IMG/VR virus record: IMGVR_UViG_2911215477_000001
Location: 1 to 38,485 of that record
Origin: a virus
Taxonomy: Duplodnaviria > Heunggongvirae > Uroviricota > Caudoviricetes
Length of the DNA: 38,485 nucleotides
Direction: 5' to 3' (one strand)
Part shown: positions 3,284 through 38,437 of the stretch, in pieces
Position numbering within the stretch: position 1 is the stretch's first letter
How the letters are laid out: every line of letters begins with the position of its first letter
The notes under the pieces: model-generated
What the model saw: only the letters and a program-made list of their open reading frames with translations
The model's database searches: none
What the model was told of the DNA's origin: nothing
Position numbers and translations under genes: made by a program

Positions 3284-3320
3284 GCTCTTCTCTCCTGTGC
3301 GCGCATTTGCGCTTCACGCA

Positions 3321-3342
3321 ATTATAGTATGTGCATACATAC
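3321..3342 (-). promoter_or_regulatory. Operator-like palindrome 1 plus -10 box
   Basis: GTATGT-gcat-ACATAC at 3327-3342. On the minus strand it is followed immediately by TATAAT (3326-3321). Confidence 0.75.
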
Positions 3343-3344
3343 CA

Positions 3345-4469
3345 TTACAGCGAAATCGTTAGGGGCTTCTCTGGGTAGCGCTTGGCCACCTCCCCCTTCA
3401 GCAGCACGATGTCCACGCCCGTCCTGATCCGCTTAGCGTTCTGGATCGCGGACAGGATCTCCACCGGCTTCGCTTCGCCTGGGTCTTTGTCCTTCGGGAG
3501 CATCGCCACGTAGCACTCAAACCCCATCTTCAGGAGGCTCAGACACGCCTTGGCAGCTGCGAAGGTCGCTTTCGCCTCCCCATCCCAGAGGAAGGTCAGG
3601 CGCTTGACGCCCTTACCCCTGAGCTTGATGAACTGGCCCAGCTGGTCATTCCCTTCGTTGTTGCCCTCGGACAGGTGCATGCCGAAGGTGCCCACGGCCA
3701 GGGTGGTCTCACGCTTGGAGAAGTCCGTGTCCAGGGCGATCTTTGCCCCGATGACGTCAAACGCACCCTCGCAGATGACCACATGGTCTACCCCAGGCAC
3801 GACGTTCCACCCGTTGTAGAGGTAGGAGCCGGTAGACGCGAAGCCAGGCGGGAACAGGTAGCGCTTCTCGTGCTCCCCAGTGCCGTCTCGCCCCTGGAAC
3901 GTGACCAGCTCACCCTCCAGGTCGAAGACCGGGATGATCACGCGCTTGCCGTAGTCCTGCTTCATCTTGCGACCGTCAGGGCTGACGACTTCGAAGGAGC
4001 CCTCTTCACACCAGCGGAGCCCGAAGTATTCAGCCAGGGCTTTATCCACCCCTCGGCGTGCCAGGTATTCGGGAACCTCCTCCATCTCCGCGACAGGCTT
4101 GCTCTCGGGGAGATAGAGGGAATTGAGGTCCGCGATGGTCAGGACTGACGTTCGCTTGGGCCTCCAGCCCTGCTCCTGAGCCAGTTTCCTGAGCGTCAGA
4201 AGCAGCTGGTTGCCAGCTTGGGAGTACAGACCCTTGAGGAAAGTCCATTTGGAGAAGGTCTTCTGGGGGCAACCGCCAGAGAAGCAGTTGCCGACGCCAG
4301 AATCCGCGTTGACGTAGACACGATAGTCGTTCGACCCGCAGAACGGGCATGCCCGGACGTTGAGCTGACGACCTGAACGACCGTAACTGTCACGGTGGGA
4401 CACGCCTTCACGGTCGAGCACCCACTCCATGTCGATCTGGTCGAGCAGTTCTTTTGCCTCCTCCCACAT
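3345..4469 (-). CDS. DNA primase (Zn-finger + TOPRIM)
   Basis: CPFC..NCFSGGC Zn-binding region, TOPRIM ICEGAFD and LWDGE, DKDPGE. Adjacent to the helicase. Confidence 0.88.
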   Translation of the reverse strand: MWEEAKELLDQIDMEWVLDREGVSHRDSYGRSGRQLNVRACPFCGSNDYRVYVNADSGVGNCFSGGCPQKTFSKWTFLKGLYSQAGNQLLLTLRKLAQEQGWRPKRTSVLTIADLNSLYLPESKPVAEMEEVPEYLARRGVDKALAEYFGLRWCEEGSFEVVSPDGRKMKQDYGKRVIIPVFDLEGELVTFQGRDGTGEHEKRYLFPPGFASTGSYLYNGWNVVPGVDHVVICEGAFDVIGAKIALDTDFSKRETTLAVGTFGMHLSEGNNEGNDQLGQFIKLRGKGVKRLTFLWDGEAKATFAAAKACLSLLKMGFECYVAMLPKDKDPGEAKPVEILSAIQNAKRIRTGVDIVLLKGEVAKRYPEKPLTISL

Positions 4470-4474
4470 GACGC

Positions 4475-5824
4475 CTATGCCTCGATTTCGATGATGGACT
4501 CGATCATTCGTGCCTGTTCAAGGTTCGTCTTGACCCGGACGATGAAGTTGCCCTTCTGGTTACGGGACGCGGCGAAGTAGAGCTTTGCCTCGTTGTTTGC
4601 CTTGTCCTCGTCGCTACTGTTGATGGAGATCAGCAAGTCCACAGTTCGGACCTTGTTGATGTCTTCAGCGACGTGCTCCATCTTGCTGACCGTGGACTTG
4701 AAGCCCTCACGGTTGGTCTGGGTCGCAGACAGAAGCGCGCAGTTGAACTCGTAGGAGATGGCACGCAGGTCGATGTAGATCATGCGGCTGTTCTCGCGCA
4801 TCTCCGACGACATCTGATCCGGACGCATCAGGTCGGCGTAGTCCACCACCACCATGTCGTAGTGATTGCCCTTTGCGGCTTCCCGGTGAAGCAGACGACG
4901 GAGGTCGCCAGGGCTGAAGCTGCCCGTGGGGAAGTCGAACAAGGAGAACTTGCCGGCCTTAGCAGACGCTGCCTTTACCTTGTCGCGAACGGCACCCAGA
5001 GCGATCTGGAGATCCTTCATCGCGGTCTTGGCGATGTTCGCGTCCATACGATCCGCGATGATGCGAGCGGCCACTTCCAGCGAGACGTACAAGACGTTGT
5101 AGCCGGCGAGACAGGCATTGACCGCGAACGCGATCAGCGACATGGACTTGCCCGCTTTCGCAGCGCCCATGATCACGCTCAGCTCCTTGCGACCCCATCC
5201 CTTGTTGTAGAGAACACGGTCCAGCTCCTTGAAGCCGGTGGTGATCCCGTCATAGGTGATGCGACCCGCCAGAAGCTCCTTGCGGTATTCCGCACGCCCC
5301 TCGATCGTTTCGAAGAAGTCGATCTTGGAGTTGTCCTGGTTCTCGCCCACCATCAAGGCTTGCTTGATGGCCTTTTCGATGGCCGGGAAGTCCCGCTTAT
5401 CGACCAGCTCTGCAGACTTCAGGATGGCCTCGGTCATCGCAGAGTGACGAGCGAACTCGGCCACGCGGTCGATGGTGAAGTCCTTGTCGTCCAGCTCGAC
5501 TGCGTACAGCTGACGCAGCGCCTGCTTCATGTCCTCAACGAGGTCGCCACGGATGGTCTTGTTCTTGACCGCATCCGTGAAGAGCATCACGAACGCCGTC
5601 TTGGACGGGATCATCTTGTACTTGTTGAAGTAGTCGAGAGCCAGGCTCACGATCTGACCGAGGCTTTCGCTGGTCATGTAGCGCGGCTGGACGAGCCCTT
5701 CGGTGCGCTGGTTGAAGTCCGTGTCGCGAAGCACCCAGGCAGCGATCTGTTCCTGGAAGTTCTCGTCGAACTCATAGGTAACGCCCTCTTCGGTCGCTAC
5801 CACCTCTTCTTCGACCGCCGACAT
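4475..5824 (-). CDS. DnaB/gp41-like SF4 replicative helicase
   Basis: Walker A GAAKAGKS, SLEVA, Walker B VVDYADL, ATQTNR, AEDINK. Confidence 0.92.
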   Translation of the reverse strand: MSAVEEEVVATEEGVTYEFDENFQEQIAAWVLRDTDFNQRTEGLVQPRYMTSESLGQIVSLALDYFNKYKMIPSKTAFVMLFTDAVKNKTIRGDLVEDMKQALRQLYAVELDDKDFTIDRVAEFARHSAMTEAILKSAELVDKRDFPAIEKAIKQALMVGENQDNSKIDFFETIEGRAEYRKELLAGRITYDGITTGFKELDRVLYNKGWGRKELSVIMGAAKAGKSMSLIAFAVNACLAGYNVLYVSLEVAARIIADRMDANIAKTAMKDLQIALGAVRDKVKAASAKAGKFSLFDFPTGSFSPGDLRRLLHREAAKGNHYDMVVVDYADLMRPDQMSSEMRENSRMIYIDLRAISYEFNCALLSATQTNREGFKSTVSKMEHVAEDINKVRTVDLLISINSSDEDKANNEAKLYFAASRNQKGNFIVRVKTNLEQARMIESIIEIEA

Positions 5825-6136
5825 TTAAGCCACCTCGGCAACGGTGATCTCTTCGAGGGCGTGCTTGAACAGCAGGCGCTTGACGGCACCGTTGTTGGTG
5901 GAGATCAGGATGGTGTAGCGATCAACCTCCAGGACGTAGCCGTTCAGGACGACATCAGCGCCCAGCACGAATTCCAGCTCGGTCTCGGACTCGCGCATCT
6001 CCTGCAGCCACTGGTCATGGCTCCAGGGCTTCGGCTGGGGCGGGAGGACGATCTTGGTCGGCGGGGTTACTTCGGGACGGCGGGCCTTGCCGTTCAGGTG
6101 GAGGGTCTTGCGACGGGGAAAGTTGTGATCCTTCAT
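5825..6136 (-). CDS. hfq: Hfq-like (Sm-fold) RNA chaperone with basic, Pro-rich N-terminal extension, 103 aa
   Basis: SHDQWLQEMR..EFVL..VVLNGYVLEVDRYTILI..LLFKHALEEI aligns by eye with the Hfq core (LQDPFLNALR..IYL..IKLQGQIESFDQFVILL..VYKHAISTV). ATG at 6136. Confidence 0.8.
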   Translation of the reverse strand: MKDHNFPRRKTLHLNGKARRPEVTPPTKIVLPPQPKPWSHDQWLQEMRESETELEFVLGADVVLNGYVLEVDRYTILISTNNGAVKRLLFKHALEEITVAEVA

Positions 6137-6153
6137 TCTCTTCTCTACTGCGT

Positions 6154-6177
6154 ATGTATGTCGATACATACATTGTA
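6154..6177 (-). promoter_or_regulatory. Operator-like palindrome 2 plus -10 box (hfq-like promoter)
   Basis: ATGTATGT-cgat-ACATACAT (6154-6173, perfect 8-bp arms, core 6156-6171). On the minus strand TACAAT directly precedes the core. Confidence 0.8.
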
Positions 6178-6189
6178 GCGAGGAAAAAG

Positions 6190-6882
6190 TTACGCGATCA
6201 GTTCAGCGGGAAGCAGCTTCTCGGCAGTCGCTTGGGACAGCACTCCCTGGTCGATCAGACGCAGGGCGACCATCGAGCTGCCCTTGGCACGGATCATCTT
6301 GCAGAGCCATTCGTCGAACGCGCCCTTCCACGGGGCAGTCGAGTCGGCCATGAGGGTCGGGGCGGTGAAGTGCAGCGCTCGGATGGGGAGTTCCTCCTTC
6401 CAGCGCATTGCGATGAAGCCGATCAGGGGCAGGACGCCGGGACGGGCCTTGCCGTAAAGCTGACGGACGTTGGGGAGCCTGCTCCACCCGCGATCCACTG
6501 CCTCGTTGATCCCGAGACGGACGAACGTGTCATAGGGCATCCCGAGAGCGTCAGCGGCCTGTCGTGCCCCGAATGCGTCTTTCATCTGCTGCTCTTTTAT
6601 AAGAGACGTGAACAGCTTCGACACAGCGATAGGGGCGCGATAGATGCCGGTGTACTTCTCCTGCGACTCGACGTAGACCTTGTTGCAGAGCTTCCCAAAC
6701 AAGCGCGTGCGCTTGACGGGGTGCATGCCCCTGTATTCCCACCAGCAGGCTTTCGCAAGCTTGCGCTCGCGCTCACAGATCGCGTCAAAGTCGTTTGGGA
6801 ACGAGCGCATCAGCGCTAGATCCATGTCCCTGGCTTCCATGTCGAAGCCAGGGAACTCGATGGTATGTGTGATGGTCGCCAT
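6190..6882 (-). CDS. Conserved phage hypothetical protein, about 230 aa
   Basis: Long ORF. The WWEYRGMHPVKRTRLF motif recalls a protein of SSU5/pHCM2-like elements (from memory). Start set to MATITH (6882) because the upstream ATG lies in the promoter region. Confidence 0.7.
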   Translation of the reverse strand: MATITHTIEFPGFDMEARDMDLALMRSFPNDFDAICERERKLAKACWWEYRGMHPVKRTRLFGKLCNKVYVESQEKYTGIYRAPIAVSKLFTSLIKEQQMKDAFGARQAADALGMPYDTFVRLGINEAVDRGWSRLPNVRQLYGKARPGVLPLIGFIAMRWKEELPIRALHFTAPTLMADSTAPWKGAFDEWLCKMIRAKGSSMVALRLIDQGVLSQATAEKLLPAELIA

Positions 6883-6884
6883 AG

Positions 6885-6927
6885 TTAGTGCTTTGTCTCT
6901 GAGCACTAATTATATGCGCTCACATAC
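6885..6927 (-). promoter_or_regulatory. Operator-like palindrome 3, TATAAT box and downstream 8-bp hairpin
   Basis: ATATGC-gctc-ACATAC at 6912-6927 overlaps a minus-strand TATAAT. Inverted repeat TTAGTGCT (6885-6892) / AGCACTAA (6902-6909). Confidence 0.7.
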
Positions 6928-7677
6928 TTATTTTGTCGCAGGATCTCGATACCGCCTCAAGATCTCCTTGACCAGGCCCGAGCGCACAACGTCATCCTCG
7001 GTGAACTCGATGACCTTCACGCCCTTGAGACCCTTCAAACGCTCCATGGCGTCCTTCAGGCCGCTTTCGCCAGGGATGTCCTTTTGGGTGATGTCGCCAT
7101 TGATGACCACGGTCGAGTTTTCACCGATGCGGGTCAGGAACAGCTTCATCTGCTCCGGGGTGACGTTCTGGGCTTCGTCCAAGATCACGAAGCAGTTGTC
7201 GAAGGTCAGGCCACGGATGTACTCCAGGGGCTGAATCTCCACCTTTTCGAGGCGCTGGAGGTTCTCCAGATGCCTTGCGCCGAGGACCGAACTCAGGATG
7301 TGCCGGAACGGGGCGAAGTACGGTTCGAACTTCTCGTGGATGGTGCCGGGAAGGAAGCCCAGTCCCTTACCTGCTTCGACTGCCGGACGGGTCACGATGA
7401 TCTTCTGGATCTTCCGCTGAAGCAGCAGGTTCGCAGCGTGCGCGGTGCAGACGTAGGTCTTGCCCGTGCCAGCGGGACCGATGCCGAAGGTCAGCTGATT
7501 GGATTCCATCGAGATGAGATAGTGACCCTGCACCTCATTCTTCGGCACGACTTCCTTGACGTAGCCGTAATCCTCTTCCCCACGGTGACGCTCACTACCC
7601 ACACGCTCCTTGCCAGTGCGTTCCCGGTTCTCACGTTCCATGCGCTCGTTGCGCTTACGTTCTGCTCGGCGTCCCAC
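6928..7677 (-). CDS. phoH: PhoH-family ATPase
   Basis: GPAGTGKT, ITRPAVE, GFLPG, RGLTF, ILDEAQN, GDITQKD. Probable GTG start at 7677 with AAGGA SD. Confidence 0.93.
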   Translation of the reverse strand: MGRRAERKRNERMERENRERTGKERVGSERHRGEEDYGYVKEVVPKNEVQGHYLISMESNQLTFGIGPAGTGKTYVCTAHAANLLLQRKIQKIIVTRPAVEAGKGLGFLPGTIHEKFEPYFAPFRHILSSVLGARHLENLQRLEKVEIQPLEYIRGLTFDNCFVILDEAQNVTPEQMKLFLTRIGENSTVVINGDITQKDIPGESGLKDAMERLKGLKGVKVIEFTEDDVVRSGLVKEILRRYRDPATK

Positions 7678-7731
7678 GTTTGTCCTTCCTTGGTTGTGAA
7701 AAAGGGCGTCCGTCCTAGACACCCTTGGGGT

Positions 7732-10736: not shown

Positions 10737-10784
10737 TCCCTTGTAGCCAGTGTGTATGTATGCGCTTACGTATTCTACAAGGGA
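10737..10784 (-). promoter_or_regulatory. Lysis-cassette control region: operator-like palindrome 4, -10 TAGAAT and flanking 10-bp inverted repeat
   Basis: GTATGC-gctt-ACGTAT at 10758-10773. Perfect IR TCCCTTGTAG (10737-10746) / CTACAAGGGA (10775-10784). The downstream arm on the mRNA contains the SD of the holin candidate. Confidence 0.75.
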
Positions 10785-17472: not shown

Positions 17473-17499
17473 TCGATCATCCTTGATCTATGGAGGTAT

Positions 17500-17519
17500 G
17501 TATGTGCCTACATAGTATA
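17500..17519 (-). promoter_or_regulatory. Operator-like palindrome 6 overlapping -10 TATACT (tail-fibre promoter)
   Basis: GTATGT-gcct-ACATAG at 17500-17515, preceded by GTAT. Minus-strand TATACT overlaps the site by 2 nt. Confidence 0.75.
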
Positions 17520-29640: not shown

Positions 29641-29665
29641 CTATGTATCTACATACATACTACCA
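29641..29665 (-). promoter_or_regulatory. Operator-like palindrome 7 plus extended -10 (tail-tube promoter)
   Basis: CTATGT-atct-ACATAC-ATAC at 29641-29660. The minus strand reads TG-G-TAGTAT directly before the core. Confidence 0.75.
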
Positions 29666-32799: not shown

Positions 32800-32835
32800 A
32801 AAAGAAAAAGGGACGGGCGATAAGCCCGCCCCTTT
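32800..32835 (-). terminator. Intrinsic terminator after the major capsid gene
   Basis: Minus strand GGGGCGGGC-TTATC-GCCCGTCCC-TTTTTCTTTT. Confidence 0.88.
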
Positions 32836-32857
32836 CGGGTTGCTCTAAGCCGATGGC

Positions 32858-33791: not shown

Positions 33792-33811
33792 GTATGTATG
33801 TGGTTACGTAC
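33792..33811 (-). promoter_or_regulatory. Operator-like palindrome 8 (upstream of the capsid gene)
   Basis: GTAT-GTATGT-ggtt-ACGTAC at 33792-33811. The -10 box is weak here. Confidence 0.7.
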
Positions 33812-34734: not shown

Positions 34735-36336
34735 TTAGTTGTTCCCTGGAGTGGGCTTGCCGCCGCTGTTGTCTTTCGACGAGACGGCACCCTGGTTCGA
34801 ATCCTTCGAACCGTCCTGGGCTGGTGTATGTATGTTCATACCTACACCATTAAGCGAAGTGTAGGCACTGTCGTCCCAGGAATCAATAGCCTTCTGCAAT
34901 TCCTGTTTCTTCTCTTCTGCCAGCATCGGCCAGATCTTCTCCACGATGCCGGTCATCAGTGCGCGACGCACCTCGATGGGAGCTGCGAGCAAACTCATGC
35001 CCTGCGCAATCGCCATGTCGTCGGACAGACCGCGCACGTCGAAGCTCGTGCTGTACTTCACCGTGTTGGTTTCGGGATCGAGCAGGCTGGTCTTCTCGCC
35101 GTTCCAGATGCGCACCAGGGTTTCCATGCGGTTGGAGAACTGCTCCATCGCATTGGCCTTGGCCGAGAGCAGCGCGTTCACACGTTCGAAGTCGTATGCC
35201 TTTGCTACGCCCGAGCTGTTGTCGATGCCGACCGAGTTGTCCTGCTTGGTGCGCTCACCGGCAAGACCGACCGTGTGGTAGATCTCGTTGATGATCTGGC
35301 GGATCGCCGTGATGATCAGGGATGCTTGGCGCGGATCGGGGCTGATGTAGGTGGGGGCTGCGCCGTGCTCACCGTCGAACAGAAGCACCTGGGAAGTGCC
35401 CATCTTCATCAGGTTGCGCTTGGCTTCGTCCTCTTCCTTCGCACTGTCTTCCGGCGACAGACCCACGCCCGGCAGCACACCCTGAGCCGGCATGACGAGC
35501 TGGCTGAAGGTCTGGTCGTTGATGATCTGGTCCAGGCACGACAGGTAGTTCGCGGTGCCACGGTCCATGTAGGCGATGTCTTCGATCAGCCCAGGGTTGT
35601 GGTAGCGAGCGTCCGACTCGACGTGATCGGCCTTGATGACCGGCACGACGCCCAGGTTGTGATCGCCCTTATCGACGAACTCGATCTTGTCCCTGACGGT
35701 CTGCTTGAAGACGAACCACTGGGTCTTGGTCCACAGGCGGAAGCGGGACAGCACGCGGCCCGAGCCCGAGAACGGGTTGTCGTCGTCGCGGTAGACCTCT
35801 TCGATCAGGATCCACTCCAGCTGGCCGAAGTCGTCGTAGCCCATGTCCAGGACATGCTTGGGGGTGACGATGTACGAGTAGAGGCGCACCGCACCATTCT
35901 TCTCGTCGGCAATCGACGCGATCTCGGAGTTGCTGCGCTTGTTGTTGTCCACCACGACCCAGACGCGACCATAGATCGACGTCTTGCGGGCGACCTCGCG
36001 TTCGAACTGGGACAGCGTGAGGCCCGTCAGGGTGGCTCGCTCGCGGAAACGCAGCACCTGGTCGGGGACGTCCGGCTTACGCACGGGTGCCACCTTGAAC
36101 AGATACTTGTTCACCAGGTCCACTACCTCGCGGGTGTGGTTGAAGCGGTAGGCGCGCTCCACACGCTTGGCGTAGGTCGTGTCACCCTCTCGCGTGAAGC
36201 GGAAGATGTTCTTCTTGAACCAGGACCGCTCGCTCTTGTAGGTCTCTTCCAAGAACTCCCAGTGTTCCAGCTTCTCCCGGTAGTCCGGGTGACGGCGCTG
36301 GGTGAGCGCCGCCATTTCCTTTGGCTTGTAAGTCAT
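34735..36336 (-). CDS. Portal protein (SPP1 gp6-like), 533 aa
   Basis: Follows terL. HNLGVVPVI, IAYMDR..NYLS and SGVAKAYDF motifs. Confidence 0.9.
   Translation of the reverse strand: MTYKPKEMAALTQRRHPDYREKLEHWEFLEETYKSERSWFKKNIFRFTREGDTTYAKRVERAYRFNHTREVVDLVNKYLFKVAPVRKPDVPDQVLRFRERATLTGLTLSQFEREVARKTSIYGRVWVVVDNNKRSNSEIASIADEKNGAVRLYSYIVTPKHVLDMGYDDFGQLEWILIEEVYRDDDNPFSGSGRVLSRFRLWTKTQWFVFKQTVRDKIEFVDKGDHNLGVVPVIKADHVESDARYHNPGLIEDIAYMDRGTANYLSCLDQIINDQTFSQLVMPAQGVLPGVGLSPEDSAKEEDEAKRNLMKMGTSQVLLFDGEHGAAPTYISPDPRQASLIITAIRQIINEIYHTVGLAGERTKQDNSVGIDNSSGVAKAYDFERVNALLSAKANAMEQFSNRMETLVRIWNGEKTSLLDPETNTVKYSTSFDVRGLSDDMAIAQGMSLLAAPIEVRRALMTGIVEKIWPMLAEEKKQELQKAIDSWDDSAYTSLNGVGMNIHTPAQDGSKDSNQGAVSSKDNSGGKPTPGNN
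34826..34845 (-). promoter_or_regulatory. Operator-like palindrome 9, embedded in the portal 3' coding sequence
   Basis: GTAT-GTATGT-tcat-ACCTAC at 34826-34845, an AT-rich patch within the portal tail. Confidence 0.65.
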
Positions 36337-36354: not shown

Positions 36355-36374
36355 GTATGTATATGGTTACATAC
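36355..36374 (-). promoter_or_regulatory. Operator-like palindrome 10 (upstream of portal)
   Basis: GTAT-GTATAT-ggtt-ACATAC at 36355-36374, in the 46-nt terL-portal gap. Confidence 0.7.
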
Positions 36375-38282: not shown

Positions 38283-38351
38283 CTCCATCCTTGGAGATAT
38301 GAAGACGGGATCTACAGCGCGTCCCATCCTTGGGGGCTGTAGATCCCGTCT
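38283..38351 (-). promoter_or_regulatory. Structured terS leader: two CAAGGATG-loop hairpins, one capping a perfect 16-bp stem
   Basis: AGACGGGATCTACAGC (38303-38318) / GCTGTAGATCCCGTCT (38336-38351) with inner CCCA-AGGA-TGGG. CTCCA-AGGA-TGGAG (38283-38296) covers the SD. Confidence 0.75.
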
Positions 38352-38353
38352 GT

Positions 38354-38437
38354 TAGAAAATCCCGGCTCGGTCCATCGGAGGAGAGAAGAGATGGTCTTT
38401 GGCGACCGCTGCCGGGGTGTCCTTTGTATGTATGTGC
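38354..38437 (-). ncRNA. Candidate leader-derived small RNA of about 85 nt (hairpin plus U-tract, pyrimidine-rich loop)
   Basis: Starts just after TATAAT (38449-38444). Nested stems CCCGGC/GCCGGG, CGGT/ACCG and CCATC/GATGG, loop TCTTCTCTCCTCC, then ATTTTCT. Structure predicted by hand only. Confidence 0.45.

Follow-up and report, generated by a model that had tools for sequence, protein, structure and literature searches.

The Hfq-like gene and its prophage neighbourhood

The window, by which we mean the whole analysed stretch of 38,485 nucleotides, represents a siphovirus-type prophage of ~45 kb that is integrated in a 4.99-Mb chromosome. Its genes encode an integrase, an ATP-dependent ligase, a primase, a helicase, an Hfq-like protein, a member of phrog_2500, PhoH, a metallophosphoesterase and a lysozyme, together with structural and packaging proteins (tail fibres, tape measure, major head protein, scaffold, portal and large terminase). 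The right edge of the window is closely followed by ParB-like and ABC-ATPase genes. The Hfq-like gene (5825-6136, minus strand) is found within a replication module encoded on the same strand. It is followed by the gene of a 449-aa DnaB-type replicative helicase with a DnaB_C domain (4475-5824, minus strand) and then by a DnaG-type primase gene (3345-4469, minus strand), the next gene of the helicase unit. On the other side, the Hfq-like gene is immediately preceded by one for a conserved 238-aa protein of phrog_2500 (6190-6906, minus strand). This gene occupies the same position in every relative, standing next to the helicase where the Hfq-like gene is missing. It is preceded by the gene of a PhoH-like ATPase (6928-7722, minus strand), a conserved member of the same module. 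The TAA of the Hfq-like gene (5827-5825) directly abuts the helicase ATG (5824), as the first-pass annotation had reported, and the helicase Shine-Dalgarno sequence GAGGTG is located inside the final Hfq-like codons.

No DNA polymerase, SSB or helicase loader was recognisable among the ORFs scanned in the window and in L016; since these ORFs include no phage DNA polymerase, that of the host is presumably borrowed. The 238-aa protein had no Pfam family and yielded an all-helical model at a pLDDT of only 60, for which the best fold matches (Z of 5.9 or less) fell under the noise level for helical proteins. A match of this model to the SPP1 loader G39P (Z of 4.3) was rejected as not meaningful. 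By position only, the 238-aa protein is a candidate replication initiator.

The Hfq-like ORF comprises 103 codons plus the stop codon. An alternative start at ATG 6169, which would give a product of 114 aa, was rejected because it sits within a palindrome and has no ribosome-binding site, and the public gene call is likewise of 103 aa. Codons 1-39 (6020-6136) encode a disordered, basic and Pro-rich N-terminal extension that carries the motif RRKTLHL at residues 8-14, while codons 40-103 (5828-6019) encode an Sm core of one helix and five strands with a proximal pocket formed by H40, R73, Y74, F90, K91 and H92. Residues 41-101 matched the Pfam Hfq family PF17209 with 34.0 bits (E-value of 2.2e-8), above the gathering threshold of 27 bits, and the PDB sequences retrieved with phmmer were nearly all Hfq chains. 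A single-chain AlphaFold2 model, built from an input alignment of 36 relatives, placed the secondary structure elements of the core (helix 40-49; strands 54-58, 62-71, 75-80, 85-90 and 94-99) with pLDDT values of 93-96, and residues 1-39 were devoid of secondary structure (pLDDT 53-75). The best PDB matches of this model in Foldseek were all Hfq structures, superposing over ~61 residues with target TM-scores of 0.85-0.92 and rmsd values of 0.8-1.4 A. PDB 1KQ2 was among the matches of both phmmer and Foldseek, and PDB 5UK7 was among those of Foldseek. The Sm-like Hfq fold proposed in the first-pass annotation is thus borne out by both the HMM search and the structural model.

Pfam, PHROGs and NCBIfam returned Hfq as the sole family for this protein, and the match is far beyond chance. 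The likeness is that of a distant relative, however: the NCBIfam Hfq equivalogs TIGR02383 and NF001602 scored 30.4 and 24.2 bits, below their cut-offs of 61.7 and 95 bits, which the Hfq of the host passed with 102.9 and 141.3 bits. The product of 5825-6136 is therefore a genuine but divergent Sm protein of the Hfq family, a homologue of Hfq for which functional equivalence is not to be assumed. Known helicase loaders (lambda P, DnaC/DnaI and SPP1 G39P) showed no likeness to it in Pfam, PHROGs, NCBIfam or fold, the latter being that of Sm proteins; this counts against placing it among the loaders, not against an action on the helicase.

Upstream of the Hfq-like gene there is an intergenic region of 53 nt. 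A purine-rich ribosome-binding stretch, AGAGAAGAGA (6137-6146, minus strand), lies directly before the ATG. Further upstream on the same strand (6152-6177) are a TACAAT hexamer resembling a -10 element (6177-6172), a palindrome composed of ATGTATGT and ACATACAT (6173-6154) and a box with the sequence ACATACATAC (6161-6152). The palindrome is perfect, with arms of 8 bp (6154-6161 and 6166-6173) separated by a 4-nt spacer; it overlaps the 3' end of TACAAT and the expected start site, and its right arm forms part of the box. In four relatives, as in the window, a -10-like hexamer is located 30-45 nt before the Hfq-like gene. Allowing for one mismatch at most, the box occurs in 10 copies in the window versus 0.26 expected (3333-3342, 6152-6161, 10750-10763, 17496-17505, 29651-29660, 33792-33801, 34826-34835, 36355-36364 and 38426-38435). 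The copies are nearly all intergenic and on the coding strand, with a -10-like hexamer 3-10 nt (mostly 8-10 nt) before them. The box has the look of either a phage-wide operator close to promoters or a common 5' leader. The gene had been described at first as lying behind its own promoter and operator. The TACAAT hexamer, the perfect palindrome and the dispersed box make this plausible, but a good -35 element was not found and the site was not called by a consensus promoter scan. On the basis of these upstream elements, the Hfq-like gene would head the helicase-primase unit. One copy of the box, GCATACATAC, is preceded by TATAGT and lies in reverse orientation between the primase gene and its neighbour (3290-3345, plus strand); as a possible antisense promoter, it would direct transcription back into the primase-helicase-Hfq-like unit.

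The region 38350-38437 (minus strand) is a lead for a candidate partner RNA. A TATAAT promoter at the right edge of the window, matching the consensus at 10/12 positions, precedes this leader, which contains a stem with AUUUUCU after it and a run of pyrimidines with complementarity to the ribosome-binding site of the Hfq-like gene. Ten contiguous nucleotides (13/15 overall) can pair, and this ribosome-binding site is the best complement match in the window. The RNA folds moderately better than shuffled sequences (z = -2.3). Relatives have ordinary ribosome-binding sites of the AGGAG type before the Hfq-like gene, and the antisense pairing seen in the window is thus not a feature of the family. 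A link between this RNA and the Hfq-like protein is conjecture. Sites resembling intrinsic terminators occurred at chance level in the window, which therefore shows no clear set of Hfq-type sRNAs. Just two intrinsic terminators were convincing: one after the major head gene (32806-32836, minus strand), with a 13-bp stem and a T run, and another between the convergent integrase and ligase genes (1329-1353).

Conservation of the RNA-binding faces

Hfq is a central RNA chaperone in many bacteria. The host chromosome encodes a canonical Hfq (103.6 bits) at a separate locus, and residues of the phage protein were mapped by alignment to it, the host numbering being identical to that of E. coli Hfq. 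The two proteins are only 21% identical. The residues of the proximal face are largely kept: Q8 is replaced by H40, F42 by Y74 and Y55 by F90, while K56 and H57 are retained as K91 and H92. At the rim, R16-R17-E18-R19 becomes R48-E49-S50-E51, and on the distal face Y25 becomes V57. This is the pattern that had been read by manual alignment from the sequence of the window (a largely intact proximal face, a rim changed to RESE and a valine in place of Y25), and the alignment confirms it at each of these positions and extends it to the whole family.

Across 36 family members, the positions of F42 and Y55 are aromatic in all, K56 is present in all and H57 in 35, and the equivalents of G34 and D40 are invariant. 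His occupies the position of Q8 in 33 members and K or R that of Q41 in 30. In contrast, the rim positions R16, R17 and R19 are basic in just 8, 4 and 7 members, and the distal position 25 is aromatic in 2. The combination of K41 and Y42 gives a pocket of the S. aureus type, which is bound to U-rich RNA in PDB 1KQ2. These clade members can also be recognised by the motifs GH[DE]..L, D[KR][YF]T and [FY]KHA, which here read SHDQWL, DRYT and FKHA. Judged from these residues, one of the three RNA-binding faces of Hfq, the proximal site for uridines and RNA 3' ends, is retained, and the rim patch and the distal A-R-N site are lost. The retained site corresponds to the surface with which Hfq and other Sm proteins contact U-rich RNA and 3' ends. 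In E. coli Hfq the rim arginines catalyse annealing and are required there (PMC3753642). The phage family is, in effect, a natural separation-of-function mutant of Hfq.

Every family member also carries a basic N-terminal extension, of 18-99 residues and with a net charge of +2 to +8, in contrast to the Sm core, which is neutral or acidic across the family. In the window the extension had been put at about 37 residues and described as basic and Pro-rich; it measures 39 residues, with 9 K/R, 2 D/E and 8 P and a net charge of +7. Tail sequences are poorly conserved apart from the motif RRxTLxL, which is found in the longer tails. It is present in 9 of the 39 tails of the family versus 0.4 in shuffled sequences, a contrast that is inflated by the post hoc definition of the pattern. 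The motif may be a docking site for a partner protein. In the tails of P0001, P0004, P0010, P0015, P0016, P0018, P0020, P0042 and P0043 it takes the form RRxTLx[LV], often after [IV]R[RN]DQ.

Distribution of the family and gene order

When the Hfq-like protein and a second family member were queried with tblastn against 50,697 phage records and 72,556 plasmids, no match was obtained in either set. A phmmer search of 1.84 billion representatives retrieved 11 matches, three of which (P0002, P0005 and P0007) were spurious matches to repeat proteins. BLAST finds no relatives because the family is too divergent, and its members were reached instead by profile searches, hhalign and pattern scans. 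A profile built from the first relatives recovered 33 proteins, some of them named Hfq by the JGI pipeline, and the use of two conserved peptides as query identified 61 IMG/VR loci and two named genomes (Paraburkholderia and Massilia). Genomes were scanned with a subgroup alignment of the family as seed. Among 300 sampled genomes of the order of the host, only the host itself had a second Hfq-like gene.

The strongest pattern to emerge, which was absent from the first-pass annotation, is that this conserved family always stands directly before a DnaB-type helicase. In all 61 IMG/VR loci the Hfq-like gene is followed by a homologue of the window helicase (34-49% identity), and in 51 of them the first ATG of the helicase frame is located between -10 and +5 nt from the Hfq-like stop codon. 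The order of a ~240-aa gene, the Hfq-like gene and the helicase was also observed in 8 metagenome contexts, in the Paraburkholderia and Massilia genomes and in Nickievirus phages. The window helicase is nearest to those of siphoviruses of ~110 kb, namely Stenotrophomonas ANB28, the Rhizobium RHEph10 type, Pseudomonas nickie and Salmonella SSU5, which have in common a module of PhoH, the ~240-aa protein, helicase, primase and ligase. SSU5 and Rhizobium RHph_N1_10 have the same neighbours without an Hfq-like gene at this spot. The gene is therefore accessory, but its position is constant wherever it is present. In ANB28 this position, overlapping the helicase start, is taken by an unrelated-looking ORF of 69 aa (L014, 3278-3487); it resembles Sm1/Sm2 by eye and lacks the KH motif, and neither the family profile nor Pfam gave a significant match to it. 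Longer or fused forms of the Hfq-like protein, including an Hfq-helicase fusion, were not found in these searches.

Our literature searches yielded neither a published study of an Hfq copy encoded by a phage nor a description of this family. What was already known is the Hfq fold and family, and one member is labelled hfq in GenBank (that of Nican01). What is new is the definition of a clade in which a single RNA face survives, the N-terminus is extended by a basic tail and the gene constantly heads the helicase-primase operon.

Possible roles and comparison with known systems

With family membership, fold, conservation pattern and gene order established in this analysis, we tentatively propose, with a confidence that stops a little short of even, as the most economical reading that the phage protein acts as a proximal-only Sm ring, binding U-rich RNA or the 3' ends of phage RNAs and setting their stability or translation early, without being a full matchmaker. 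The protein would most likely assemble into a homo-oligomeric ring, and its proximal pocket for uridines and 3' ends would bind U-rich single-stranded RNA or the 3' ends of phage RNAs, possibly leader or antisense RNAs and early transcripts, the stability or translation of which would be set by this binding in the early phase. The flexible basic tails, emerging on the proximal side, would probably add non-specific affinity for nucleic acids. Being encoded first in the helicase-primase operon, the Hfq-like protein would be produced together with the replication proteins, and because this operon lies behind a copy of the dispersed promoter-proximal operator-like box, it should appear as lytic replication switches on. 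The Pfam score, the Sm fold and the constraint on the proximal pocket argue for an RNA regulator. So does the precedent of T4 RegA, an RNA-binding regulator encoded within a replication gene cluster. The -10-like hexamers, the dispersed box and the candidate leader RNA also speak for this reading. Against it stand the scores below the NCBIfam equivalog cut-offs, the chance-level terminator-like sites, the only moderately better fold of the leader and the lack of the gene in SSU5 and RHph_N1_10, and the constant place before the helicase suits a role in replication at least equally well.

Such a role, in which the ring would assist the DnaB-type helicase, the primase or both instead of regulating genes, perhaps helping to load or organise the helicase hexamer or holding RNA primers or T-rich ssDNA at the fork, is in our view rather unlikely. 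In its favour, the helicase is the next gene in all the contexts described above (61/61 IMG/VR loci, metagenome contexts, named genomes and Nickievirus), and a loader could not be recognised in the window beside the helicase, primase and ligase. In SPP1, genes 38-39-40 encode an origin binder, a loader and a helicase, with the gene of the small loader G39P placed between those of the origin-binding protein and the DnaB-type helicase; the succession of a ~240-aa protein, a small protein and a DnaB-type helicase mirrors this order. DNA binding and effects on DNA transactions are also known for Hfq (PMC4963395), PDB 5UK7 being one of the Foldseek matches, and the RRxTLxL motif of the tails could serve for protein docking. 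Yet the gene is missing from SSU5 and RHph_N1_10, whose helicases have diverged to a similar degree and which share the 240-aa neighbour, and it is therefore not an obligatory loader. Moreover, the module is inherited as a whole together with its gene order, which thus is weak evidence of physical interaction, the lack of a fused Hfq-helicase form counts, weakly, against such interaction, the Sm fold is unrelated to known loaders, and the strongest conservation falls on the residues of the RNA uridine pocket. The more specific version, a six-fold Sm ring recruited into the phage replisome that docks on the helicase or primase via its tails and uses the uridine/3'-end pocket to hold primers or ssDNA template, or aids loading, we regard as unlikely; if true, it would make this the first Sm protein directly active in DNA replication.

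The retention of the proximal face together with the loss of the distal and rim faces is also the pattern required of a decoy for sRNA 3' ends. The proximal-only ring might accordingly capture the U-rich 3' tails of host sRNAs, or its subunits might join the Hfq rings of the host, as the first-pass annotation had suggested, in either case disabling host sRNA regulation during lytic growth. In favour of such antagonism, a canonical Hfq is encoded elsewhere in the chromosome, and this is the sole genome of 300 in the order with a second Hfq-like gene. We nevertheless consider antagonism of host Hfq improbable, as an identity of 21% to host Hfq and the spread of the family across hosts with differing Hfq make co-assembly unlikely, no link to other host-takeover genes was seen, and both the fixed place in the helicase operon and the rarity of the gene would be left unexplained. 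The suggestion that the protein is a chaperone for phage sRNAs had also been made from the window, and part of it stands: simple binding of U-rich RNA at the proximal pocket is still likely, while a classical matchmaker has become less so with the loss of the rim arginines and the distal tyrosine family-wide. A full matchmaker in which the basic N-terminal tails stand in for the lost rim patch as annealing surface is, in our estimate, quite improbable. All members do have basic tails (net +2 to +8), and the candidate phage RNA is complementary to early-gene ribosome-binding sites; but a second specific RNA-binding face is not conserved, the tails vary apart from one short motif, and with AGGAG-type sites in relatives the pairing seen in the window is not family-wide. 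Among these readings the proximal-only RNA-binding ring is the one that we favour. The target of the ring would reveal a private phage RNA regulation, a disarmed host sRNA network or, most surprisingly, an Sm ring in DNA replication. Since the family occurs in isolated phages of Pseudomonas syringae (Nickievirus), it can be tested in the laboratory.

Among known systems, bacterial Hfq of the S. aureus type (PDB 1KQ1/1KQ2) is similar to the phage protein in its Sm fold and in the invariant or nearly invariant equivalents of G34, D40, K56 and H57. S. aureus Hfq is also alike in its poorly basic rim and in combining an aromatic residue 42 with a basic residue 41. In contrast to bacterial Hfq, the phage protein has His for Gln8, lacks the distal Tyr/Phe25 and the rim Arg patch, has a basic disordered N-terminal extension instead of a C-terminal tail, and is phage-borne and tied to a helicase gene. 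Hfq3 of the Bacillus anthracis plasmid pXO1 is likewise an extra Hfq on a mobile element beside a chromosomal Hfq, but it is plasmid-borne and near to canonical Hfq, with no N-terminal extension and no link to a helicase (PMC5348863). Phage proteins resembling Hfq have been mentioned in passing, e.g., gp39 of mycobacteriophage Adephagia (PMC11373665). The mycobacteriophage proteins (Adephagia gp39 and the 'Hfq-like domain' proteins of Tonenili and Phabba) have an Hfq-like fold and appeared at BFVD ranks 5 and 9, but they are weak structural matches (rmsd of 5-12 A at full length) with another context and belong to another sequence family.

The closest counterpart is found in Nickievirus. Gp117 of Pseudomonas phage nickie, annotated as hypothetical, belongs to the same family (hhalign probability of 96.6%, E-value of 5e-10) and is the second-best structural match in BFVD. 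Its homologue in Nican01 is labelled 'hfq, RNA-binding protein Hfq' in GenBank, and the paper on Nican01 makes no mention of it. In both phages the gene is likewise flanked by the ~240-aa gene and the helicase, the start of which it overlaps. The differences are that the sequence likeness is distant enough to be missed by tblastn, that nickie gp117 has Ser at the equivalent of H57, and that Nickievirus comprises phages of ~112 kb as opposed to a prophage of roughly 45 kb here. Finally, SPP1 G39P and T4 RegA are functional analogies only, with no common sequence or fold, and they point to opposite functions.
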